Positions 48,795-60,672 of a stretch of DNA of 64,000 bases are shown in pieces. The notes below the pieces were generated by a model. The model was not told the origin of the DNA. It did no database searches and saw only the letters and a list, made by a program, of their open reading frames with translations. Each line of letters begins with the position of its first letter. The stretch's first letter is position 1. The DNA is from Nitrospirota bacterium. Its GTDB lineage: Bacteria > Nitrospirota > UBA9217. Both the position numbers and the translations under genes were made by a program. Where the stretch lies: NCBI GenBank assembly GCA_963790205.1, contig CAWBNQ010000003.1, positions 768,001-832,000 on the forward strand, in the 5' to 3' direction.

Positions 48795-51700
48795 TTAAAC
48801 AGGGGAACACCTCGCTAAGGTCATGCTGTCGAGAAACAGAAGGTAGCCTTCCACATTCTGCAGGGCAAAGATATCTTTTACGGCTTCGCAATAGATCTCG
48901 ATCTGAGGCCGGTAGTGGTCCTGCCACGATTTGAGGGCGTCATCGTTTTCTATGAGAATGGCCTTATAGTCTATCACCTATCCTCTGTTTCCTGTGATCA
49001 CAACGCGGTCGATTTTTCCGCTCACGAGCGCGTGTCCCTTCCTGGAGAGGAAGGGAAGCTCCGAGTATGCATCAGGCCGGCGCTCGAATATCCATCGGAA
49101 CTCCTCTTTGTTCAGTACGGCGTTCAGGACCGAGGCCGCATCATCGACGAAGGGCTGGCGTGCCTCGTCTCCCAGCGCCAGGATGTCCGGATATTCCATG
49201 ATGATGCTGTTGAGATCATATGCACCGGCCTTGGTGAACTCTTCGAGACAGCGGTGAAGCACGCTTCCGCGCGTGAGCGGCGATACGGCGCGGGTCCCGG
49301 ACCGGAGAAAGAGCTTTTCGATCGATTCTTCTTTCTCCTGGTGGATATAATCGGTCGCTGTTTTCCATGCCGGCGTCTCCGACCGCGGGACCGGAGAAAG
49401 GTTGTCGATGACGATCTTCCTGTCACTATCGGCTGCAGCGGATATTATTTGCCGGTCATTCCGGGCAACGCGAAGGACCTCGCTTGTGGCCCGTATGGAT
49501 ACGCCTGGTGGATAAGCGTAGGTGGTTAGTCCGGCTTCCGCTTCCAGCGGCTTTTCAAAAAGGGGCATCAAGGCGGCTTCGTGAAGATAGCTGAGCCAGG
49601 TATTTTGTTTTATCGGCGTTCTGCCGTCATTGAGCGCGCCGATCATGAACAGATGGTCCCGGGCCCGTGTCATCGCGACATAGAGCAGCCGCTGGTGCTC
49701 GCGCAAAAGCTCGTCGTGCTCCCGCGCCCACAGCTCGTCATAGACCGGGCTTCCCGCGTCCTTGACCGCCATTTGGACGCGGTCGTTCACATCCTCGATG
49801 ATGGCAAGCGGACCGGATGAGAGGGACCTGGGCTGCTGGTTCATGCCGGGCAGGAACACGATGGGATATTCGAGGCCTTTTGCCTTGTGCACGGTCATGA
49901 TGCTGACCGAGCCCTCGAACCCCGGCAGGTTCATGTCCGCCGTGGCCTCCCGCTGCTCCGTCTGACTGATGTTCCTCACCCACTCGACAAAGTCCTGGAG
50001 CGTGGTGTAGCCCCTGCGATCGAACTCGCGCGCCGTGTCGAGGAGTTTGTCGATGTTGAAAATGGCCTGCGGATTTTTCCTGCCGAAGCGGACATAGGCG
50101 CCGGTCTCGTTGACGATCCTGTGCAAAAGATCCGCCAGCGGGACGAGGCCGGCAAGGTCCATCCAATCGCGCAAAAGTTTCCAGTCCTCGGGTCTGCGCT
50201 GCTTCAGGGAATCAACGATATTCGCGCCGCCCTGCAGAAGATCGAAGATGTCTCTGTCCGTAAGCCCGAAGAGCGGGGACTTGAGCGCTGCGGCAAGAGC
50301 GAGCTTGTCGTCCCGGTTCCAGAGGAAGAAGAGCACGTTCATGAGGGCCTGCACCTCGTCCTCCTCGTAAAAGCCGATGCCGCCGATCACGCGATAGGGA
50401 ATGTTCTCCGCCTGGAGCGCGGCTTCGTACTCTTTGAGCTTCGTGCGCGACTGAATGAGGATTGCGCAGTCGCCGTATCCGGCTTCGCGTTCTTTCCATC
50501 CTCCATTGTTCGTTCCGGCATTCCCAGCGCGGGAATCCGGCGGCTTTTCATAAACAGCAGCTCCGCTTGCTATCAGAGTTTTTATCTCCCGCGCCAGCAC
50601 CTCTGCTTCTGTGGGGCCTGAAGGCCCTTCCCCTGACGACGGCGTGAGTTCGATGAGCCGCACGCTTCCTTTGTGATCCTTGCGTTCAACATTGGAAGGT
50701 TTATATGCTTCTCCCCAGAGTGTGGCGAAGACACGGTTCACGGTCTCGATGATCTCGGGCGTTGAACGGAAGTTCTTGTCAAGAGTAAGGATCTCGCGCG
50801 ATTCGGCCGGGAGGTTCTTCACCATCTTCTGTTTGACGTTCTCGATCAGGCGATAGTTCGCCTCGCGAAAGCGGTAGATGGATTGTTTCTCGTCGCCGAC
50901 GACAAAGAGGGTAGGGGCCATGCGCTTGTCAGCTCCCTGGCCGGCGAAGATCTCCTCGGTCAGCTTGTTCAGGATGGCCCACTGGATGTCGCTCGTGTCC
51001 TGGAACTCGTCAACGAGGAAGTGGAGGATCTTGCGGTCGAGCCAGTAGAGGATGTCCGGCGATTCCATTCCCTGGAGCAGGCGGTAGGCGTAGATCTCGA
51101 GGTCGTCGAAGTCGAGGAGTCCTTCCCGGAGCTTCGAGTTTTGATATTTCTTTTCGGCGCGCTGGAACAAACGAAGCAGGCTCAGGGCCTCTTGTCCCGC
51201 GCGCATGCGGGCGTGGAGAGCACGGAACTGGCCGAGCCTCTCCTGGATATCGAAAAAAGTTCTTTCGTAGTCGATGCGGTCTTTTCCAGTAAAGGCTTTT
51301 TTGGTGATGGAGGGGTTCTTGCGGGGATTTCCTTCGTTCGTAAAATAGATCGAGACCAGAGGCTCCGATGCTCTGAAGGCAGGATCTACGTCCTTTGCTT
51401 CTGAAAGCATCAGGTGCTCCTTGCCCATGCTGTCTTTATAATGATCGCCTTCGGAGCGAAGGATACGTTCCATCCGTTGCAGCAATGCCCGCCAATCAAC
51501 GCTCGTGACGAACGCCTTGAGTTCCGATTCAGCATGATCAACACCCATCCCCGTCCGAACGGCACGGAGCAACCCCTCCGGACCGCCGGTGTCGATCTCC
51601 ATGCGCTTGAGCCTGCTTCTGATGGAGAGCAGAAATCCGATCGTCTCAATGAGGGCATCAGTCGTGAAATCCCTGAGCGGAGACATGAGCTCCCGGTCGC

Positions 51701-52097
51701 GGTCGGATTCTTCAAGCGCGTCTTCGATGGCCTTTTGTATCTTATACACCTGGTCTCTGGCATCGAGCACGCCGAAGTCCGGCGGAAGCCCGGCTTCGAG
51801 CGGGTAGCGCTTCAAGAGGTTCATGCAGAAGGAGTGGATCGTCGAGATGCGGAGGTCCTGCCTGCCGCGGATGATCTTCTTGAGCATGTCCTCGGGCAGG
51901 TCGCGCATCACGCGCTCTTTGATCTCCGCCGCGGCCTTGTCCGTGAAGGTGATGGCCACGGCCTGGTCGATGGTGAGCCCGCGATCGTCGAGCACGTCCA
52001 GAAGCGCCAGGTAGCGCTCCTTGAGCGCGCGCGTTTTGCCGGAGCCGGCGGAGGCCGAGAGGTGGATGGATTTGGATGTATTTGAGGCGTTATCCAT
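48795..52097 (-). CDS. addA: AddA-type UvrD helicase-nuclease, interrupted by an in-frame TAG at 48978-48980
   Basis: ASAGSGKT, VDEFQDTS, VGDEKQSIYRFR, TVHKAKGLEY, YVAMTRA; nuclease GKIDR...[TAG]VIDYK...Q..Y continues in the same frame. Confidence 0.9.
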
Positions 52098-52142
52098 AGC
52101 TTTTACCGTCGATCAAACAGTATCAAAAATACCTTGACGAAT

Positions 52143-52167
52143 TGTAATGCAATGCATTGCAATTACA
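52143..52167 (+). promoter_or_regulatory. Palindromic operator upstream of the TA pair
   Basis: TGTAA-TGCAATGCATTGCA-ATTACA, next to TTGACG (52134). Confidence 0.6.
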
Positions 52168-52195
52168 TGCATGAACGTCCATTGAGGAGGCATCT

Positions 52196-52579
52196 ATGCA
52201 ATCGCAACTGACCGTGAGACTGCCGGAAGACCTTGACCGCGAGGTCTCCAGCGCAGCCAAAAGGCTTCGCCTCAAGCGCTCCGACATCGTGCGGCCGGCG
52301 CTGGAACAGTATCTGCGCGAGCCCCATGTTCAGGAGGAGCAGGCCCCCTACGGCAAAGTGAAACATCTCGTCGGCTCGGTCAAGAGCGGTATTCCCGATC
52401 CGGGCGCTTCTCACCGGGAGCACCTCGTGAAGCGGATCAGACGCAATGGATGGCATCCTGCTCGACACCGGGGCCTTTGTCGCGCTCCTGGACCGAAGCG
52501 AGAAGAACCATGCAAGGTGCGTAGCATTCTTCAGCTCCTTCCCTGGCAGAGTATTCACCACCGAACCCGTGCTTACTGA
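52196..52579 (+). CDS. Ribbon-helix-helix antitoxin (VapB-like); conserved part probably ends near 52450
   Basis: QLTVRLPEDL...RSDIVR RHH; GSVKSG motif; GAGGAGG RBS. Confidence 0.75.
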   Translation: MQSQLTVRLPEDLDREVSSAAKRLRLKRSDIVRPALEQYLREPHVQEEQAPYGKVKHLVGSVKSGIPDPGASHREHLVKRIRRNGWHPARHRGLCRAPGPKREEPCKVRSILQLLPWQSIHHRTRAY

Positions 52580-52859
52580 AGCCCTCTGTCTTCTCGGTCC
52601 GTCAATCAAGGCGCAACGCGCCTGTCTGGAGTTCATCCTCAAGGGCGGGGCCACTCTTGTGCCGCAATCAACAGCAAGCCTTGAACGCGCCGCTTCGCTC
52701 ATGACGAAGTATCATGACATCCCCATGGATTTCGCCGACGCGACGCTTGTCGCTCTCGCCGAAGAAACGGGTATCAATGAAGTTTTCACCCTCGACAAAC
52801 GGGGATTTCAATCTTACCGCATCCAAGGAAAGAAACCCTTTACATTACGGCCCCTATAA
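52446..52859 (+). CDS. PIN-domain VapC toxin
   Basis: LLDTG, VLTE, MDFADA, FTLD. Confidence 0.9.
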   Translation: MDGILLDTGAFVALLDRSEKNHARCVAFFSSFPGRVFTTEPVLTEALCLLGPSIKAQRACLEFILKGGATLVPQSTASLERAASLMTKYHDIPMDFADATLVALAEETGINEVFTLDKRGFQSYRIQGKKPFTLRPL

Positions 52860-52860
52860 A

Positions 52861-54060
52861 TTAAGAATGACCTAAACTCTTATATATCTCTTCGAAATTA
52901 ATACCTCCAATGGTTACGCCCTCATACGCTTCGGGAAGAGATTTTAAAACGCTCTCCAGATGACTTGAGGTTATACCGTGGGCAACGGAAAGTGATGCCT
53001 CCATATAAGCTGCAAGATGGTCACATGCCTTGATAACTTCTCCATCGACTGGAGAGAACCTGTCGTCGTTATATTGAGAATTCAATGAATCAGCAGGCAC
53101 AGCCTTTACCGTGCCATTTTCCAGAATCTTGCTGCTGAACTCGTCCTCGATGAAGTATTTTATCTCTTGGTGCCAGCTTTCAGGCAGGAGCGGAAGGATG
53201 CGTTCTTCTACCTGTTTCTTTTCGATTTCCTTGATCAAGTCTTCGAGTCCTGCAACAGACCTTTTAACCGGAGATACGATGTCCCGCGTCAAGACCTCGG
53301 GTAGATCATGGAAGAGACCAGCGAAGAAATTGTTTCTTACGCGGACATCACAGGCCCCAGCTTCCTCGGCACATATATAAGCAAGCACGGCAACAACCAG
53401 CATGTGCCCCATTACTGACGTGGCAGGAACCCTCGGCGATTTGGTCCACCGTTGCTGGAACCTGAGTTGGCCTACGAGGTCCGTGAAATTTCCGACTTTT
53501 TTTACGAGGCTGATCTTCTGCACCCCGATCATATCTGAATACAACTCGAGATCTTCCTCGATTTGCTGTTTCGTTTCGGTTATTTCATAAAAATGCTTGT
53601 TCAGTGGATAAACGATCCCGAATTCCCAATTCGTCGCTAGGTAGTGGGCCGCCTGGAGTATCCTCCGCTCATCGGGGAAGAGTCGCTCATTAAGTAAGTA
53701 AGCTTCAAAGCGGTCCATGAAGCCGCTGCTGATATCCCTGAGCGTATCGTTAAGCTGGTCGAGCACCCAACGGTTCAGCTTCTCTCCGCTATCGCGCATC
53801 ATCCGATGAAAGACCGGAGGCTTGATATCCGTGAGAACGGTCCGATGGAAAAACTCAAATAAGGCGCCCTCGATCAATACCTTCCAATCAACCGGAGATC
53901 CACCGCTCGTTTCTTCGAACTTCGCAAGAACATATGCATAAAACATTTTGTGTGCTTGTTTGTCTAATTCAGTAAAACCATGAGGTGGTCGGATATGGTC
54001 GTTCCAGCGTTGGATGTGGGCGGATTCGTAGATTAGTTCAAGGATGGCTTTAGTGATCAT
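52861..54060 (-). CDS. HD-domain hydrolase (YfbR-like 5'-deoxynucleotidase type, duplicated fold)
   Basis: QRWND...ELDKQAHK; RFQQRW...SVMGH...FHDLPE.LTRDI.SPVK; CDHL. Confidence 0.8.
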   Translation of the reverse strand: MITKAILELIYESAHIQRWNDHIRPPHGFTELDKQAHKMFYAYVLAKFEETSGGSPVDWKVLIEGALFEFFHRTVLTDIKPPVFHRMMRDSGEKLNRWVLDQLNDTLRDISSGFMDRFEAYLLNERLFPDERRILQAAHYLATNWEFGIVYPLNKHFYEITETKQQIEEDLELYSDMIGVQKISLVKKVGNFTDLVGQLRFQQRWTKSPRVPATSVMGHMLVVAVLAYICAEEAGACDVRVRNNFFAGLFHDLPEVLTRDIVSPVKRSVAGLEDLIKEIEKKQVEERILPLLPESWHQEIKYFIEDEFSSKILENGTVKAVPADSLNSQYNDDRFSPVDGEVIKACDHLAAYMEASLSVAHGITSSHLESVLKSLPEAYEGVTIGGINFEEIYKSLGHS

Positions 54061-54149
54061 AAGTGATTACGAACTGGTCGACAATAAACATATGATTGTC
54101 GCGCGTCGAAGGAGCGACATATTGCTACGACAGTGGAGCATTATGTTTA

Positions 54150-54638
54150 TCACCTTTTTCTGTTAAGTGGTGGCATTTCTAAGTGTTCATTAAAATAACG
54201 CTTCAGTAGGTCTCTCTCTGCTTTATCCGGTTGTGGATGAACTACATAATTGATAGCAATTGGTCCGTAGGTCTTAATTATATATTCATATCGTTTCCAA
54301 TTGTAGTCATCATCTCCACCTGCCTCCGTTGACGCATATTTGTAATGTCTATCGAACAAGCTAGTTATTGTTTTTCCAATATAGACAACGTCACTCGTGG
54401 ATTTTAGACGCGGTATCGCCCCCTTAGTGGTGGCCCAAACGTACACTACACCTACTGCACTATGTGCTTCATCGGATAAGAATACATTTTTAAACGCAAT
54501 TCGAAAGCTATCTCGGTTGCTACCTTCCAGTACTCCCGGAAGATTTTTTATTTCCCCATCAAGGTTAGCCATTAATTCATCATGATTCATACGTTTCATT
54601 CCTTTCTGCCTTTCTGGCGAAATAGCATTTATCTCCAT
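54150..54638 (-). CDS. GIY-YIG-like nuclease domain protein (start probably 54590)
   Basis: GVVY...VYIGKT..L..R...E...PPLN pattern. Confidence 0.65.
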   Translation of the reverse strand: MEINAISPERQKGMKRMNHDELMANLDGEIKNLPGVLEGSNRDSFRIAFKNVFLSDEAHSAVGVVYVWATTKGAIPRLKSTSDVVYIGKTITSLFDRHYKYASTEAGGDDDYNWKRYEYIIKTYGPIAINYVVHPQPDKAERDLLKRYFNEHLEMPPLNRKR

Positions 54639-54672
54639 GGTTGAGCGCGCAAATAAGGAATATCATTGTTAA

Positions 54673-55059
54673 TTACTTTCGTTTGACCTTTAGTACAACA
54701 ACTAGAGCCAAAACAGGAATTGGCACATCGCCATCGGTTTCCCAGCTATCGGAGGAGCTTCCGTTGTATGGTTTTAATGTTCTGCCATCCCATTCCCAGC
54801 TATCGGAGGAGCTTCCGTTGTATGGCTTTAATGTTCTGCCATCCCATTCCCAACTATCGGAGGAGCTTCCGTTGTATGGTTTTAATGTTCTGCCATCCCA
54901 TTCCCAACTATCGGAGGAGCTTCCGTTGTATGGTTTTAATGTTCTGCCATCCCATTCCCAACTATCGGAGGAGCTTCCGTTGTATGGCTTTAATGTTCTG
55001 CCATCCCATTCCCAGCTATCGGACGAACTTCCATTGTATGGCTTAATAGTTATGCTCAT
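54673..55059 (-). CDS. Perfect 18-aa tandem-repeat protein (KPYNGSSSDSWEWDGRTL) with hydrophobic C-terminal segment
   Basis: AGAGGTG RBS; all differences between units are synonymous in this frame. Confidence 0.85.
   Translation of the reverse strand: MSITIKPYNGSSSDSWEWDGRTLKPYNGSSSDSWEWDGRTLKPYNGSSSDSWEWDGRTLKPYNGSSSDSWEWDGRTLKPYNGSSSDSWEWDGRTLKPYNGSSSDSWETDGDVPIPVLALVVVLKVKRK
54741..55046. repeat. 54-bp tandem repeat, about 5.7 copies
   Basis: Units start at 54741, 54795, 54849, 54903, 54957 and 55011. Confidence 0.95.
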
Positions 55060-55288
55060 CGAATTTCACCTCTTTTATTAAATGGTGGGTTGATTGCGTA
55101 GAATAATGCTAAACTCGACAACTCAATATAAGCGCAGTCTGGTCCACAATAAATGAACGGCTATTCTTTCTCCTTTTATATTTTACTGTCGCTGGATAAG
55201 AGTGATCACCGACAAAAAATTTGTCGCGTAGAATGTGTCAACTGTCTTTTAAAGGCCCTATCGACTAAGCAGAGCTATGATATGACAG

Positions 55289-55317
55289 AGTGTATATAGG
55301 AAGGATGTACTTGTCAA
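55289..55317 (-). promoter_or_regulatory. sigma70-type promoter upstream of the repeat-protein gene
   Basis: Minus strand TTGACA-17bp-TACACT. Confidence 0.55.
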
Positions 55318-55455
55318 TAATATTTCTGGTTCACAAATCTAATGAGGGCCAATCATTTTTACTCGGGTTAGCTCGTAAGCGCCAAGTTGTTCTCCAGTCT
55401 GATTTTCTCAACTCCTCGACCACTGTTTCCTTCTTGGAATATCTATATCCTCACA

Positions 55456-55824
55456 TCACTTTAACTTCATCGTGCAGATATACACGCTGAGAACAGAGGC
55501 TTCCTGCGAATTATTGGGAAGCCCACCGGCTGTTTTGGCATCATAGATAAAATCAATTATGCCCTTTGACACTTCATAAGATAGCGAAGCCTCTTTGTAT
55601 CCATCAAGAAGCTCTGTCTTGGATGCACCTCTTTTATAATGGTCGAAAATCTGAGATCCATAAAGAGATGCTACATCCTTGCAGATTGAAGCATTCTGAG
55701 GTGTCATCTGGTTGAGATTTTTCTGTGCCTTCCTCGAAAGTTCCTTCGCATCAAATGCTGAAGAGGATGAACAGCCAGCCATTGTTACAAACATCACGAT
55801 AATCAAAAGCGCAAGCTTATTCAT
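55456..55824 (-). CDS. Hypothetical lipoprotein
   Basis: MNK plus hydrophobic stretch and MAGC lipobox; GGAG RBS. Confidence 0.75.
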   Translation of the reverse strand: MNKLALLIIVMFVTMAGCSSSSAFDAKELSRKAQKNLNQMTPQNASICKDVASLYGSQIFDHYKRGASKTELLDGYKEASLSYEVSKGIIDFIYDAKTAGGLPNNSQEASVLSVYICTMKLK

Positions 55825-55876
55825 ACGTGTTTTCTCCTGGCATTATTTTTTGTTACAGATATAGATCAATTATGCT

Positions 55877-56038
55877 TTACTTGCCCACTACATTTTCTTC
55901 AATGAACTTTAACCGCTCGGCCAAGTTTCTCCACGGCCCTCCACACATTTTCGCCATAAAAGGTGTAAGCATGCACTCTGGTTTATAATAACAATTATTG
56001 CACTTGATGGGTTTGTTTTCACCATTTTGAATTATCAT
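55877..56038 (-). CDS. 53-aa Cys-rich protein, not in the ORF track
   Basis: MIIQNGENKPIKCNNCYYKPECMLTPFMAKMCGGPWRNLAERLKFIEENVVGK*; ATG 6 nt after a -10 box. Confidence 0.55.
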   Translation of the reverse strand: MIIQNGENKPIKCNNCYYKPECMLTPFMAKMCGGPWRNLAERLKFIEENVVGK

Positions 56039-56044
56039 TCAAGT

Positions 56045-56077
56045 AGAATAACACCAGCTACTGACAACAGTATGTCA
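56045..56077 (-). promoter_or_regulatory. Putative WYL-activated promoter 2
   Basis: Minus strand TGACA-TACTGT-TGTCAG-N10-TATTCT-N6-ATG. Confidence 0.7.
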
Positions 56078-56455
56078 TACTCGAATAAGGGTTAAAGCTT
56101 TCTTTATCGTATTTAGCAAATATGCATTTTCTGGTGGCTTTATTATAAAATCAAATGCTCCCGTAAGAAATGCCTTCTTGGCCGTTTCCTTGCTCGCATA
56201 GTTCGCAAGTATGATCACCGGCATTCGCGGCCTGAATTCCCTCAACCTCCGTAGCGTTTCTAGCACTTCGAGCTCTGGCATGGTAGCATCCGTGTCTATG
56301 ACCGCTAGGGCGATTTCTTCTCTGGAAATTATTTCGAGTCCTTCCGCTGGGGATGTCGCCGAAATAGCCTGATAGCTCTCAGAGCAAAGAAGTCTGACAA
56401 GAGGCGCGAGAACTTCCTTGTTAAGGGTGATTATTAAAATTTTTTCATTATTCAC
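56075..56455 (-). CDS. Stand-alone atypical receiver-domain protein
   Basis: LAVID..., MPVIIL, GAFDFIIKP; lacks the N-terminal acidic pair; probable GTG start at 56455. Confidence 0.75.
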   Translation of the reverse strand: MNNEKILIITLNKEVLAPLVRLLCSESYQAISATSPAEGLEIISREEIALAVIDTDATMPELEVLETLRRLREFRPRMPVIILANYASKETAKKAFLTGAFDFIIKPPENAYLLNTIKKALTLIRV

Positions 56456-56462
56456 GAGATAT

Positions 56463-56496
56463 AAAATACCTTCTATTCCTGACAGCATTATGTCAG
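56463..56496 (-). promoter_or_regulatory. Putative WYL-activated promoter 1
   Basis: Minus strand CTGACA-TAATGC-TGTCAG-N10-TATTTT-N7-GTG. Confidence 0.7.
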
Positions 56497-56532
56497 TGGT
56501 TGAAATTTTTTATTTGAGAGAAAAATCAAGCT

Positions 56533-57513
56533 TCAGCGGCCTTTATTTTTTTTCTGATATAAAGCTGCCATTGATTTGAGTTCGCTTGCCACTTCTTTTC
56601 TGAATTCCGGCGGGGCAAGAACCTCACAGTCTGATCCCCAGTGATAAATCCAACGCCGGATCTCATCGGTGCCCTCAAGTGTGACCTTGAATATAATCGA
56701 CCCGTCTTTCTTGGTTTCTATCTTTTGTGATGGATGCCATTTCCGCCTTGTTATCCAGCGAGACATGCCGTGGCTGAACCTCAATTTTATCTCTACGGGG
56801 CTGCCATATCTGATGATATGCCAGCCTGCTTTGAAGTATTCATCCATGGAGAATCCCTGTGGAATGACATAATTTCTATGGGTTGCCGCGACATTTTGAA
56901 TGCAATCAAGAGCAAATTCCCGGATGCATTTCTTCTCGTGGCAGTAGGCAAGAGTGTACCAGACCCCGTTGCTGTAAAAGAGGCCATACGGATTTATCAT
57001 CCTTTGGGTCATCTTCTGGCTTCCCATAGCGTGGTACGTTATATCCAAGCTGACCTTCTCATCAAGGGCTTTTTGCAACGCGTCAAATTGCTTTTGAACA
57101 GCAGAAAAATCGTCGACGGGGTCTATATCAAACCAGTAATTTGAAGAAACGGTTTTCAGCCTTTGTCCTGTTTTATGTCCAGTCCCAAGCGTGATCTTCT
57201 TCATAAGACCGCTGTAAGCATTCGCAATCCCATGTCCCAGTTTGGAGAGCACAGCTTTGCTTGCCAGCATGGCCCTCGCCTCGTCAGTGGACAAATCAAT
57301 TTTTTTGAGCGAATAGCCTTCGGTAAATCGATAAGAGGCGGCGTCCTCATTAAAATAGACGGGGAAATCAAGAGAAAGCGCTCCGAGGTCCCTGTACACG
57401 GTCCTTTCTGCTACGCCGAAACGTTCGGCAAGACCTTTAGCAGTCACTTTCCCTCCTTTATCTATAAGGCTCAGGATTTCAACCATCCTGTTAACTCGTT
57501 TCATATCAGCCAT
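56533..57513 (-). CDS. wHTH-WYL-WCX transcriptional regulator (YafY/PafBC/DriD-like)
   Basis: LAERFGVAERTVYRDL HTH; R.INPYGL...WYTLAYC...REFALDCI; WHPSQ, W...WG..CEVLAP. Confidence 0.93.
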   Translation of the reverse strand: MADMKRVNRMVEILSLIDKGGKVTAKGLAERFGVAERTVYRDLGALSLDFPVYFNEDAASYRFTEGYSLKKIDLSTDEARAMLASKAVLSKLGHGIANAYSGLMKKITLGTGHKTGQRLKTVSSNYWFDIDPVDDFSAVQKQFDALQKALDEKVSLDITYHAMGSQKMTQRMINPYGLFYSNGVWYTLAYCHEKKCIREFALDCIQNVAATHRNYVIPQGFSMDEYFKAGWHIIRYGSPVEIKLRFSHGMSRWITRRKWHPSQKIETKKDGSIIFKVTLEGTDEIRRWIYHWGSDCEVLAPPEFRKEVASELKSMAALYQKKNKGR

Positions 57514-57522
57514 GGATACTCC

Positions 57523-60500
57523 TCATTTTCCCTGTGCATCATCCGTGGAGGCCGCTCCATCACACATCACCTCATTCGGGCAATAACGGCATTTGTTCTC
57601 GTCCTGCGGCGTTGAGGTGAAATTGCCCGCCAGGATGGCCTCGATTGCCTTACGGGCCTTGTCCATGCTCTGATTCAGGATCGTCTCGAATTCATCTGTG
57701 CTTTTGGGGCTTGCGTTGGGCTTGGACGAGGGGTGATCGTTCCGCGCTTCCTTGTTAAAGAGCACAACGTCCCGGGCGCCTGCCCGGGTCTTGCCCGCGA
57801 GATCGTAATACGCGAGGCCTATCGGTTTCTTCAATGCCGGACCCTTGGCGAGCAATGCCCGCTGTGACATGACCGCATAGACGGGGAGTTGAAAAATGTC
57901 CTGGTCAACGTTCATTTTCGGCAAAGGATATTTGCCCGTCTTGTAGTCTACGATGATGAAGTTCCCGTTCTCGTCCACGTCGATTCGGTCTATCCTGGCC
58001 GAGAGTTCGACTTCCTCGCCGTTCGAAAGAAGAAGCGGATAACGCTCGATCTTTTGTTCAAGGTAGGCCGGACGGAATCCTTGTTTCCAGAATTTCTCTT
58101 CCGCATCAAGGAATCGCTCAGCCATGACGGTCAGGAACAGCTCTTTCTCCCGCCGGTTGCGGAAGGTGTCGGCCTCGGGATCGAAGGCTGAGTCAGCGAG
58201 TTTTCGTAAGATCGTCCGCGCCTCATCCCGGGCCGCTCTCGTGACGGGCCTGGTCCAGGAAAGATAGAAGTTCCGGAGGATCGCGTGCACTTTGCTGCCG
58301 CGGGCCATGGGCGAAATGTCTTCGGTCGGCTCTTCGAGCGGTTCGATGCGGAGAACGTATTTTACGTAATAATCGTAGGGGCACTTGAGGTAATCGTCCA
58401 GCTCGGTGACCCGGAATTCCCGTTTCACGAACGGCGTGTTACCCTGAGCGCGTTCTTCAGGCTTATAGTCGAGGGCTGATCTGATCCCGGACACGCCTTC
58501 GATGTTCGAATTCAGGATCTCATCGAGCCCTTTGATGCTCCCCGCAAGACCGATCGCCTTTGCCAGTTCAGGAACGCTGCGACTGTCCTCGATCTTTAAA
58601 CTGAACTGAATACCGGAGGTCTTCCCGATCCCGCGATTCAGCAGGCCCGCCTCCTTGAGCGGGGTCAGCTCCTCCAGAAAGGGCGACGGCACCACGGGCC
58701 TGTCGCCCTCGTTCTCCGGCCAGGTCAGCGTGATAGTATCAGCCGAGAGCAGGAGACGGTAAAAATGATAGGCTGCGTTCAGGCGCGCCCGCTCAAGCGT
58801 GCGCACGCCCATGGCCTCGAGCGTCTGCTCGGGAAGGAAGATGTTCTGCGGCAGGCGTTGGGGAAACTTGCCGTCTGCAAGCCCGCCGAGGTAGATCTCC
58901 TGCCAGGGAGTGCCCAGGCTTTCCTCGAGCCCCAGGATCTGCACGCCCCCTTCGTCCTCGGGCGGCACCTGGAAGCGGGTGTGCATGAAGGTCTTCTTCA
59001 AAAGGAAGAGCCATTCGTGGAACGTATGCGTATAGCCGGCGAAAAGGCTCCCTGCCCGGGCAAGCGACCCCAGCGTTTCGATCAGTTTCCGGTAGGCCTG
59101 GAGATTGACATTGAGGGGGCCGTGAATTGCCGCGACCCTGGCGCCGAGGCCTGACCAGGCAATGAGAACGTCGAGGCGCTTCATCCAGATATTGAGCGGC
59201 GCAGTATCCTGTGAAGAAAAAGGTTCGAGTGCTGCAAAGAGCTCGTTCAATGGTCCGGTCAGTACGTCGGAAGCGCTTTCATCAAGCTTGTGGAGTTTAA
59301 GCGCTGCAAGGAGTTTCTGCCTGCCGCCAATAATGCGCCTGTCCCGCATGAGCCGGTCGAGCGCCGGAGCGATCGTCCGGTTTTCGGCGAACTTCAAAAA
59401 AGGAGAACTAAAGACGCGCAGGAGCGACGGGCCGGAGAAATCTTCCTGGCATGCGCGAAGGAGCGAGACCACGGCAATGGCAACCGCCGAGGTGCTGAGC
59501 TGCCTGCCAAGCGCGCGGTTGTAGGGGATGCCGTAGTCGTTGAATATCTCTTCCACGAGCGGGCCGTATTCGTCGAGCGCGGGAAAGGCAATGAGGATCG
59601 AGTCCGCCAATGTGCCGGTTTTGAGCGATCTCTTCACCTCGCCGGCGATGAGCGTAACCTCTTCACGGGTATTCACGGCTGAGAGCAGATTGATCGTCTT
59701 TGCGAACGATGAAGGTTGGGGAGCTTTGTCCGCTATCTCGGAAAAAGGCCTGTCCGAAAACAGGGCCGAGGCAAGGAACAGCTGCTCGTCATCCGCGTCA
59801 ACTCCCGCCTCCTTCGGAAGGACCCCGATACTGACAAGAGAATCGTGAACAATCCTGAGGGGATGATATTCACCTGCACGTTTAAGCAGGTCTGATGAGG
59901 GAACGTTAACGAGCCATGTGCAGTTTCCGCAGTCCGCCACTTTTTTAAGAATGTCCGCTTCGAGCGGGCCGATGTCCTGAATGCCGTCGATGATGATCGT
60001 GCGATAGTGCGCCAGCCAGACGGGATCGAAGCGGTCGCGAAGGTATGCGCGCATCCCCGCGGGATCGGTAAGGTTGCCCTCTTTTAGAGCGTTTTGATAG
60101 CGGGTATACACGTCAAGGAGCAGCCGGACTTGCGGTTTGTCGAAAGAATCCGAACCTTGTATCTTTACCGAGAGGTCGTCGGGGTTTATGCCGGCGCCCG
60201 AAAGCTGCTCGATCATTGTTGCCACTGCCGAGGTGAGCGACGGCGCGAGCAGGTCGGGACTGAGAGGGAATGAGGAGAAATTGCTCAGGCGTTCTTTCAC
60301 GATGCCTTCGAGAAGGACCAGCCTGCTGTTCTCGTCCATCAGAAGGGGCCCGTTGAGACGGCCATAGAGCAGCTGAAGGAACTGGTGGAGCGTCTGGACC
60401 TCGGGCTGGACCAGCGCGGCGGACCCTCTGCGCTCCGCGAATTCCAGGAACAGCCTGCCGTACATCCGCTTCATGCGCGAAGAGGGCACGAGGATTAGAA

Positions 60501-60612
60501 CGTCGTTATACAGGAAGGGCGCAGCCGGCCGCGAAGACAGAACATCTTCAAGCACGCGCTTTTTTTCTTCCCAGCCGGCGCTTCCATATGGCAGAACGAG
60601 CGCTTTCAACAT
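57523..60612 (-). CDS. addB: AddB-type PD-(D/E)XK nuclease subunit
   Basis: KCPY, RGSKVH, RIDRID...IVDYKTG, QLPVY, CRYCPNEVMC (Fe-S staple Cys); neighbour of addA. Confidence 0.88.
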   Translation of the reverse strand: MLKALVLPYGSAGWEEKKRVLEDVLSSRPAAPFLYNDVLILVPSSRMKRMYGRLFLEFAERRGSAALVQPEVQTLHQFLQLLYGRLNGPLLMDENSRLVLLEGIVKERLSNFSSFPLSPDLLAPSLTSAVATMIEQLSGAGINPDDLSVKIQGSDSFDKPQVRLLLDVYTRYQNALKEGNLTDPAGMRAYLRDRFDPVWLAHYRTIIIDGIQDIGPLEADILKKVADCGNCTWLVNVPSSDLLKRAGEYHPLRIVHDSLVSIGVLPKEAGVDADDEQLFLASALFSDRPFSEIADKAPQPSSFAKTINLLSAVNTREEVTLIAGEVKRSLKTGTLADSILIAFPALDEYGPLVEEIFNDYGIPYNRALGRQLSTSAVAIAVVSLLRACQEDFSGPSLLRVFSSPFLKFAENRTIAPALDRLMRDRRIIGGRQKLLAALKLHKLDESASDVLTGPLNELFAALEPFSSQDTAPLNIWMKRLDVLIAWSGLGARVAAIHGPLNVNLQAYRKLIETLGSLARAGSLFAGYTHTFHEWLFLLKKTFMHTRFQVPPEDEGGVQILGLEESLGTPWQEIYLGGLADGKFPQRLPQNIFLPEQTLEAMGVRTLERARLNAAYHFYRLLLSADTITLTWPENEGDRPVVPSPFLEELTPLKEAGLLNRGIGKTSGIQFSLKIEDSRSVPELAKAIGLAGSIKGLDEILNSNIEGVSGIRSALDYKPEERAQGNTPFVKREFRVTELDDYLKCPYDYYVKYVLRIEPLEEPTEDISPMARGSKVHAILRNFYLSWTRPVTRAARDEARTILRKLADSAFDPEADTFRNRREKELFLTVMAERFLDAEEKFWKQGFRPAYLEQKIERYPLLLSNGEEVELSARIDRIDVDENGNFIIVDYKTGKYPLPKMNVDQDIFQLPVYAVMSQRALLAKGPALKKPIGLAYYDLAGKTRAGARDVVLFNKEARNDHPSSKPNASPKSTDEFETILNQSMDKARKAIEAILAGNFTSTPQDENKCRYCPNEVMCDGAASTDDAQGK

Positions 60613-60643
60613 TGCGGCATGATTATGCCACAAGTAAAAATTA

Positions 60644-60672
60644 TTGACAATGATTAGTGCATCGTCTATAAT
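60644..60672 (+). promoter_or_regulatory. Consensus sigma70 promoter for fdx-trxA-tlpA, back-to-back with a likely addB promoter
   Basis: TTGACA-17bp-TATAAT; minus strand TTGTCA-17bp-CATAAT shares the -35 region. Confidence 0.85.

Follow-up and report, generated by a model that had tools for sequence, protein, structure and literature searches.

Within a 64,000-nucleotide stretch of a Nitrospirota genome, hereafter the window, two minus-strand sites close to a gene for a WYL-domain regulator share one layout: a TGACA-N6-TGTCAG palindrome, 10 nt, a -10-like hexamer and, almost at once, a start codon. A sequence-only reading had likened them to the promoters of PafBC and proposed that a single WYL protein applies the same activation geometry outside Actinobacteria. 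The locus therefore raises the questions of whether the palindromes belong to the neighbouring regulator, how many genes they serve, and which known WYL system they resemble. Our analysis indicates that they most likely form a local regulon of two promoters, controlled by a homodimeric WYL activator of the DriD/SiwR type and carried in a mobile island.

Two promoters beside the only WYL gene

Both promoter strings occur in the window exactly as first reported, on the minus strand, with the N10 gap and with start codons 7 nt (GTG, 56455) and 6 nt (ATG, 56038) beyond the hexamers (Table 1). Box 1 starts 37 nt after the WYL stop codon and would occupy positions -39 to -23; the receiver gene ends on the TGA with which box 2 begins. 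An extended -10 TG is present at promoter 2 and absent from promoter 1. Neither site has a -35 element, the best match to TTGACA at 16-18 nt being 2 of 6 at both. Reading the upstream cTGACA as a -35 was rejected because it lies 22 nt from the -10, which is too far, and promoters firing in the opposite direction were rejected because the plus strand has no TANNNT at gap 10. The claimed lack of a ribosome-binding site (RBS) stands in substance, with anti-Shine-Dalgarno pairing of -4.6 and -3.4 kcal/mol at the two sites versus -7.1 to -7.8 for three neighbouring genes, and needs amending for site 1, where a weak AGAAGG lies 13 nt before the GTG, within the N10 spacer, and could be used by a read-through transcript. 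Two conventional sigma-70 promoters were also seen in the window: a near-consensus TTGACA-17-TACACT inside the island (55289-55317, minus strand) and a perfect TTGACA-17-TATAAT before ferredoxin-thioredoxin genes (60644-60672, plus strand).

Table 1. Features of the WYL locus and its flanks, in window coordinates.
Feature	Position	Strand	Remarks
addB-like gene (flank)	57523..60633	-	
Low-GC accessory island, ~5.4 kb	52100..57520		between addB and addA; delimited by GC
WYL regulator, 326 aa	56533..57513	-	wHTH + WYL + WCX; Pfam HTH_11/DeoR, PF13280, PF25583
Operator box 1 (predicted)	56479..56496	-	(C)TGACA-N6-TGTCAG; palindrome 56495-56480, G 56479; matrix score 33.4
-10-like hexamer TATTTT	56463..56468	-	10 nt past box 1; no -35
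Target 1, 126-aa stand-alone receiver domain	56075..56455	-	GTG start; PF00072
Operator box 2 (predicted)	56061..56077	-	TGACA-N6-TGTCAG; palindrome 56077-56062, then G; matrix score 26.8
-10-like hexamer TATTCT	56045..56050	-	extended -10 TG; 10 nt past box 2; no -35
Target 2, 53-aa miniprotein	55877..56038	-	ATG 6 nt after -10; C-X2-C-X5-C-X9-C conserved
122-aa lipoprotein-like gene (weak basis)	55456..55824	-	own RBS; read-through from promoter 2 possible
Possible decayed third box	55193..55226	-	CGACA-N7-TGTCGG-N10-TATCCA; spacer one base too long, -10 without last T; below 15 bits in matrix scan
128-aa ORF	54673-55059	-	six to seven 54-bp (18-aa) tandem repeats
162-aa ORF	54150-54638	-	Atlas neighbours (0.95-0.96), GIY-YIG on 11-25% of members
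HD/YfbR-like (5'-deoxynucleotidase-like) protein, 399 aa	52861-54060	-	
Antitoxin + PIN-domain toxin pair	52196-52859	+	addA end of island
addA-like UvrD helicase-nuclease (flank)	48978..52097	-	

The number of palindromes is by itself ordinary. Allowing at most one mismatch, the window contains 2 against 1.03 expected, and 23 of 100 shuffles reach 2; in the 4.34-Mb genome, TGACA-N6-TGTCA occurs twice, compared with a mean of 2.8 across 15 other spacers (0-15). Their placement is not chance. A scan of the genome for the palindrome, as the sequence-only reading had suggested, returned just these two copies, both within 500 bp downstream of the genome's sole WYL gene, in the same orientation and with G-N10-TANNNT on the same side of each. 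With a weight matrix derived from 39 sites of other genomes, the two boxes come out first and second genome-wide, the next score being 20.1 bits and the best of three column-shuffled matrices reaching 16.9; since the training sites were chosen with the same pattern, the matrix shows uniqueness in the genome rather than the reality of the pattern. A third matrix match (C3:668077) has no fitting gene start.

The boxes do not extend to a genome-wide regulon of the PafBC kind. Genes for recA and lexA, both present in the genome, carry neither box nor half-site across 600 bp upstream, and, genome-wide, gap 10 shows no excess over other gaps in half-sites combined with a -10 (TGTCAG-N10-TANNNT, 11 versus 7-24; TGTCGG-N10-TANNNT, 17 versus 12-23). 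On these counts, together with the matrix scan, the wide regulon that had been anticipated is rejected and the regulon is local, consisting of two promoters.

Conservation of the box, the gap and the recognition helix

A search of 64 genomes of the class identified six orthologs of the WYL gene (54-65% identity), two of them partial. In four of the six, TANNNT follows an exact box at gap 10; the motif and its spacing are conserved beside orthologous WYL genes, as had been predicted. Beside the ortholog in genome G020, an exact palindrome is followed by TATTTA and a one-mismatch box by TATACT, and the ortholog in G035 has variant boxes in place of the TGACA-N6-TGTCA type. A search for related loci recovered only four orthologs, all of them known already.

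Preference for the spacer and the gap is also apparent where the motif played no part in the choice of loci. In 41 loci picked by WYL match alone, spacer 6 accounts for 14 exact palindromes and the spacers 2-11 for 0-3 each (3 at the DriD spacer), and 11 of 28 oriented sites have TANNNT at gap 10, versus 0-2 at any other gap from 4 to 21. When gaps of 5-16 were allowed in a scan of the whole of the 64 class genomes, 8 of 15 matches fell at gap 10, or 7 of 14 without the bacterium's own genome. Across 401 genomes of the phylum, 49 matches to the full pattern were obtained, a reversed-pattern control giving 28 (hand count). This excess lies within the family (24 versus 2); outside it the counts are 25 and 26, so many of the outside-family matches are chance, and, among the matches listed, 6 of these 25 have a WYL gene no more than 4 kb away. 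Of all 49, at least 18 have one within 5 kb. The extended -10 TG, required by none of the patterns, occurs at 14 of 42 Nitrospirota sites versus 1-6 at other positions, and this unselected enrichment supports a real -10.

Metagenome contigs, searched for exact matches to CTGACA-N6-TGTCAG-N10-TANNNT, yielded at least 120 stretches. Among the matches listed, 22 of 119 loci have a WYL gene, about a third of the loci being only 0.6 kb long; because the gap was fixed, this shows an association with WYL genes and not a gap preference. Again among the matches listed, the loci span 26-74% GC, the 17 readable WYL helices have R37 in all cases and Y40 in 16, and the extended TG occurs at 12 of 23 WYL-linked sites versus at most 6 at other positions. 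At several metagenome loci the WYL gene terminates at the TGA of the box. Second sites give no support, as none of 30 oriented, unselected one-mismatch palindromes in the 22 WYL loci has TANNNT at gap 10. Metagenome boxes often (L289, L320, L328, L295, L305, L325, L326, L365) stand before genes that, by eye and from N-terminal sequence, resemble 3-methyladenine glycosylases, GyrI and glyoxalase/VOC proteins. Such proteins are typical stress cargo.

Plasmid WYL loci (14 of 129 records) are less uniform. Exact N6 palindromes adjoin three of them (Bacillus, Clostridium and Spirosoma), none with TANNNT at gap 10; the best -10 of the two Bacillota loci is at gap 11, one further one-mismatch site has gap 10, and 5 of the 14 have nothing. 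In viral contigs, a version of the pattern with looser gaps found no WYL gene at any of 121 loci and a flat gap histogram, an imperfect control in that viruses seldom carry WYL genes. This flat distribution, like the two palindromes per genome expected by chance, is what could be cited for the view that the palindromes are fortuitous or belong to another regulator. Against it stand the WYL-adjacent location across genomes and phyla, the fixed gap and the covariation of the boxes with the WYL helix described below. We regard that view as largely refuted and give it next to no weight.

The recognition helix offers a molecular counterpart to the box. Helix 3 of the WYL protein (E36-R37-T38-V39-Y40-R41) aligns with R36-R37-T38-A39-E40-R41 of DriD, a protein that recognises the guanines through R37 and R41 and the outer cytosine through E40 (PMC10853764), and the GAC/GTC palindrome would be read by R37 and R41 here as in the DriD/SiwR type. 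In the G035 ortholog, Arg37 is replaced by Gln, and its island has four boxes that start with TAACA or TATCA and end with TGTTA, TGTAA or TGTCA, three of the four with TANNNT at gap 10; across five genomes searched, CTAACA-N6-TGTTA has its sole copy in this island. WYL paralogs with D40 adjoin CGACA halves. The G041 ortholog, which has Asn at position 37 and unchanged TGACA boxes, counts against a simple helix code, and the Gln37 case is a single genome. In 66 WYL loci that were not picked by motif, an exact box lies near 9 of 17 with R37, [YFD]40 and R41 versus 2 of 49 others, both of them close orthologs named above. In this comparison kin are not independent, two known boxes lie beyond the distance cut, and proteins shorter than 280 or longer than 420 aa were left out; the other 8 of the 17 right-helix loci have no exact box in the stretch examined.

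A probable DriD-like activator rather than a sigma adapter or a repressor

The WYL protein has the class A layout of an N-terminal wHTH followed by WYL and WCX domains, and is the only WYL match in its own genome (98% complete). A homodimer is suggested by the single gene together with the palindrome. The RBS of the gene overlaps the addB stop codon, so the regulator would be made from the addB transcript, and the matrix scan of the genome found no box upstream of the WYL gene itself. In the mechanism that we propose, the homodimer would bind each palindrome with one winged helix per half-site, over -39 to -23, and upon a signal that is probably a single-stranded nucleic acid would bring housekeeping RNA polymerase to the two promoters, each with a -10 and no -35. 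The predicted output is the switching on of two genes, one for the pseudo-receiver and one, likely leaderless, for the 53-aa cysteine peptide. The locus would thus act as a small, mobile, local stress switch, supplied constitutively from the addB transcript, beside an intact LexA/RecA system. Given the sequence evidence, we consider it highly probable that the WYL protein binds the boxes.

Its closest model is the homodimer DriD, and also SiwR, rather than PafBC sigma adaptation. DriD of Caulobacter crescentus binds a palindrome that covers the -35 region, at one set distance from the -10, in promoters without a -35 element; both of its HTHs sit on DNA, and it touches alphaCTD and beta but hardly contacts sigma (PMC13004042). 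The claim that the geometry would be new outside Actinobacteria thus fails, as DriD already shows it (PMC13004042). This wHTH-3HB-WYL-WCX homodimeric activator shares its domain order, its fold and the base-reading R37 and R41 with the WYL protein; DriD was the top match in a fold search with the predicted structure, itself of modest quality (pLDDT 68, pTM 0.35). The three DriD promoters printed in the methods section of that work have, by our own count, TG[TG]CGC, 10 nt and CAANN(T), which is the same register. DriD differs in its half-sites, GAC-N7-GTC as opposed to GAC-N8-GTC here, and in having E40 with outer base C where this protein has Y40 with outer base T. The arginine patch through which DriD contacts RNA polymerase (R120-R122/P125) does not appear to be kept, as only one Arg falls in the aligned WYL stretch; of the further DriD contact residues, A20 is matched by Gly and G18 falls in a gap, the alignment being weak there. 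Identity to DriD is about 17-20%, and unlike DriD the present system has two local targets and no recA.

The fixed distance from site to -10 without a -35 is shared with SiwR of Mycobacterium smegmatis as well, a homodimer with a 19-bp palindrome and an essential -26 region (PMC10693628). Acting as a stand-alone homodimer that activates adjacent genes via a palindrome, SiwR resembles the layout proposed here, and we read its EMSA probes as GGAC-N7-GTCC, 10 nt, CAGGGT, 7 nt and the start, in the same register and leaderless-like (PMC10693628). It departs from the present case in its N7 spacer, divergent layout, dinB-like targets, possession of both WYL arginines and occurrence in Actinobacteria. 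DdaA of Acinetobacter/Moraxellaceae, with sites of CGWCA-N5-TGWCG about 50 bp upstream (PMC12392091, PMC13010146), is likewise a homodimeric WYL activator in which the first Sm-2 arginine is replaced, and is unlike this system in its N5 spacer, the distance of the site from the start and its genome-wide damage and defence regulon. AntJ and MbpR were rejected as models because their motifs are unrelated (PMC11880434, PMC5133734); the comparison also drew on PMC7617703. Relative to DriD, SiwR and DdaA, the new features appear to be an operator one base longer and the replacement of both Sm-2 arginines, the geometry itself being known. Our literature search, which left most subscription papers outside its reach, returned neither an N6 (GAC-N8-GTC) class nor a Nitrospirota WYL regulator, and the DriD and DdaA supplements may list such sites.

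PafBC requires separate consideration, as it was the system named by the sequence-only reading. The consensus quoted there agrees with the published tGTCgg(N10)tA(N3)T, at which the HTH of PafB alone reads DNA and that of PafC binds sigma region 4 (PMC8635444). The GTC triplet at -28 to -23, the two helix-3 arginines, the 10 nt to the -10 and the lack of a -35 are common to both systems (PMC8635444, PMC6789036). A single WYL protein could accordingly be imagined as a sigma adapter, with one HTH of the homodimer on the -26 half-site, the other on sigma region 4, and the upstream half-site as a mere parking site. The right half-site in exact PafBC register, the standing of PafBC as best sequence match among solved structures, the apparent divergence from the DriD contact patch (where the alignment is weak) and the opinion of the SiwR authors that a related mechanism is plausible (PMC10693628) all speak for this. 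The heterodimer (two genes or a fusion), non-palindromic site, PafC sigma adaptation and regulon of about 150 genes that distinguish PafBC in these sources do not fit a genome with one 326-aa WYL match and no second, PafC-like gene, a site with both halves conserved, and no genome-wide DNA-repair regulon that includes recA. The half-sites are alike in information content (1.1-1.7 bits per position), in G035 they have changed jointly, the winged helix has no tryptophan equivalent to PafB W70, and the DriD structures place both HTHs on DNA with almost no sigma contact (PMC13004042). Equal conservation of the half-sites fits DriD, whose two HTHs both bind DNA. Hence the part of the earlier proposal that holds is a single WYL protein with a palindromic site whose right half, at -28 to -23, is in PafBC register; the equation of that geometry with the PafBC mechanism is not supported. 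We consider sigma adaptation improbable, and DriD-like recruitment via alphaCTD/beta probable.

A repressor in the manner of BrxR or CapW would place the box over the -35 region of weak extended -10 promoters and be released by ssDNA. The island does carry defence-like cargo (GIY-YIG-like, HD and PIN proteins), islands of relatives include an IetA-like ATPase, a NERD helicase and a beta-CASP nuclease, the extended -10 TG could permit activity without a -35, and in some relatives a box also precedes the WYL gene itself. A repressor, however, has no need of a base-exact gap, yet the gap is fixed at 10 as in activators. There is no -35 to block, with 40 of 41 sites matching 3 or fewer of 6 positions, and promoter 1 has no TG. 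BrxR and CapW rank below DriD and PafBC for this protein by both sequence and fold, and their operator within the promoter of their own defence operon has no counterpart at this box-free WYL gene coupled to addB. Repression is accordingly given little more credence than sigma adaptation, and activation is strongly favoured.

The ligand of the proposed activator is less certain. Residues of DriD that contact ssDNA include Y168, R178, Y192, R204 and W206 (PMC9186387), which are matched by Y160, R171, Y186, R198 and F200. Four of six conserved ssDNA residues (Y168, R178, Y192 and R204) are kept; R207 is replaced by A201 and R176 by T169, and the next arginine is Cys204. The Sm-2 loop reads F-A-L-D-C in four of five close orthologs, with both arginines gone. 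The PafB loop reads F-R-L-S-R, and PafBC needs both Sm-2 arginines (PMC6789036); DdaA retains a damage response with the first replaced by alanine (PMC12392091, PMC13010146). With both loop arginines replaced, the ligand is uncertain, and the losses may have altered ssDNA sensing. We still judge ssDNA the likeliest signal, with moderate confidence, and regard it as the weakest step of the explanation.

Taken alone the locus is modest, since its class of mechanism has already been described; it is valuable as evidence for the suggestion in the DriD paper that homodimeric WYL activators share one layout (PMC13004042). WYL neighbourhoods on unrelated metagenome contigs are found with the pattern CTGACA-N6-TGTCAG-N10-TANNNT, which can help to assign targets and start sites to WYL regulators of uncultured bacteria. 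Three features of the system are handles on DNA reading and sensing by WYL dimers: the longer spacer, the natural covariation of Arg-to-Gln with G-to-A, and the loss of the WYL arginines.

Target genes and the island

Neither target is a known damage-response gene. The receiver domain, for which the GTG 7 nt after the -10 is the sole fitting start, has no N-terminal acidic pair and no switch Thr when set against the usual receiver motif, and we take it to be a pseudo-receiver. A 30%-identical receiver domain is found in the WYL island of G022 and is no closer than generic paralogs.

The 53-aa peptide belongs to no known family, without matches in Pfam, NCBIfam or PADLOC. Within the class it has homologs in G022, G016 and G048 (45-52% identity), the G048 copy being broken. 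In all four of these genes the box is followed by 10 nt, a TAT-hexamer, six unrelated nucleotides and the ATG, with no indel from half-site to start and no Shine-Dalgarno before the ATG; two of the four hexamers are without the last T. A protein search with the peptide found only one relative (92%), and Atlas matches were uninformative. Contigs from two runs of one study keep WYL gene, receiver and peptide as a unit at ~91% identity, with box 2, its -10 and the 6-nt gap unchanged and two changes in the N10, which is weak evidence at such divergence. The box appears to mark this conserved, unannotated miniprotein as a real, regulated gene.

The proposal that both genes are leaderless is upheld in part. 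In usual sigma-70 geometry, +1 lies seven bases after the -10 hexamer. The A of the peptide ATG would then be +1, and with 6 nt to the ATG in all four homologs a leaderless start is very likely for this gene; for the receiver gene it is plausible. Leaderless starts as a trait of the class were rejected, because other Nitrospirota targets of related WYL genes mostly have leaders with an RBS. Among the metagenome matches listed, 15 of 115 sites have an ATG 6-8 nt after the -10 versus ~5 expected, so that about a tenth are leaderless-like. The C-X2-C-X5-C-X9-C pattern of the peptide resembles a CX2CX5C motif that is also found in the addB of the window. At the C-terminus of AddB, CX2CX5C is an iron-sulfur motif. 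A broader reading, which we hold to be speculative and rather unlikely, would posit a large WYL branch (YafY-like, RxxYR helix) with one promoter design across phyla, a longer spacer and a helix code of R37 to G, Q37 to A, Y40 to T and D/E40 to C, of which the Nitrospirota sub-branch (FALDC) would sense something other than ssDNA, perhaps redox or metal via its cysteines, and fire a leaderless four-cysteine miniprotein that possibly binds Fe-S or zinc.

The WYL gene is the first gene of the island, whose GC is 40-47% over 54000-57500 and 47-50% over 52500-54000, compared with about 55-60% in the flanks. In all five relatives compared, addB and addA are at most 0.7 kb apart, abutting in three. 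In relatives, other inserts, of about 0.2 and 0.65 kb, occupy this junction (L255, L258) and suggest an insertion hot spot. PADLOC gave no match for six island cargo proteins. The 162-aa ORF is without a Pfam match and is likely a stand-alone GIY-YIG nuclease. The HD/YfbR-like protein has a 43% identical copy in the G041 WYL island (L035 2950-4146) and may represent cargo that recurs. A long imperfect hairpin with 10-nt AT-rich arms and a REP- or attC-like look (54085-54150, minus strand) separates the GIY-YIG-like gene from the HD gene. A short repeat-rich ORF is found in the G020 WYL island too (L032 5245-5529), comparable to the 128-aa ORF in its repeat character, homology not being implied. 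Three WYL islands (L032, L036, L037) have a beta-CASP/RNase J-like nuclease in common, and that of G038 has an ATG 7 nt after the -10, in leaderless-like fashion. At L041 and L042, a second WYL subfamily (RxxDRY helix) has boxes on both sides, would drive an IetA-like AAA ATPase and has a NERD-helicase nearby, making these a candidate defence island.
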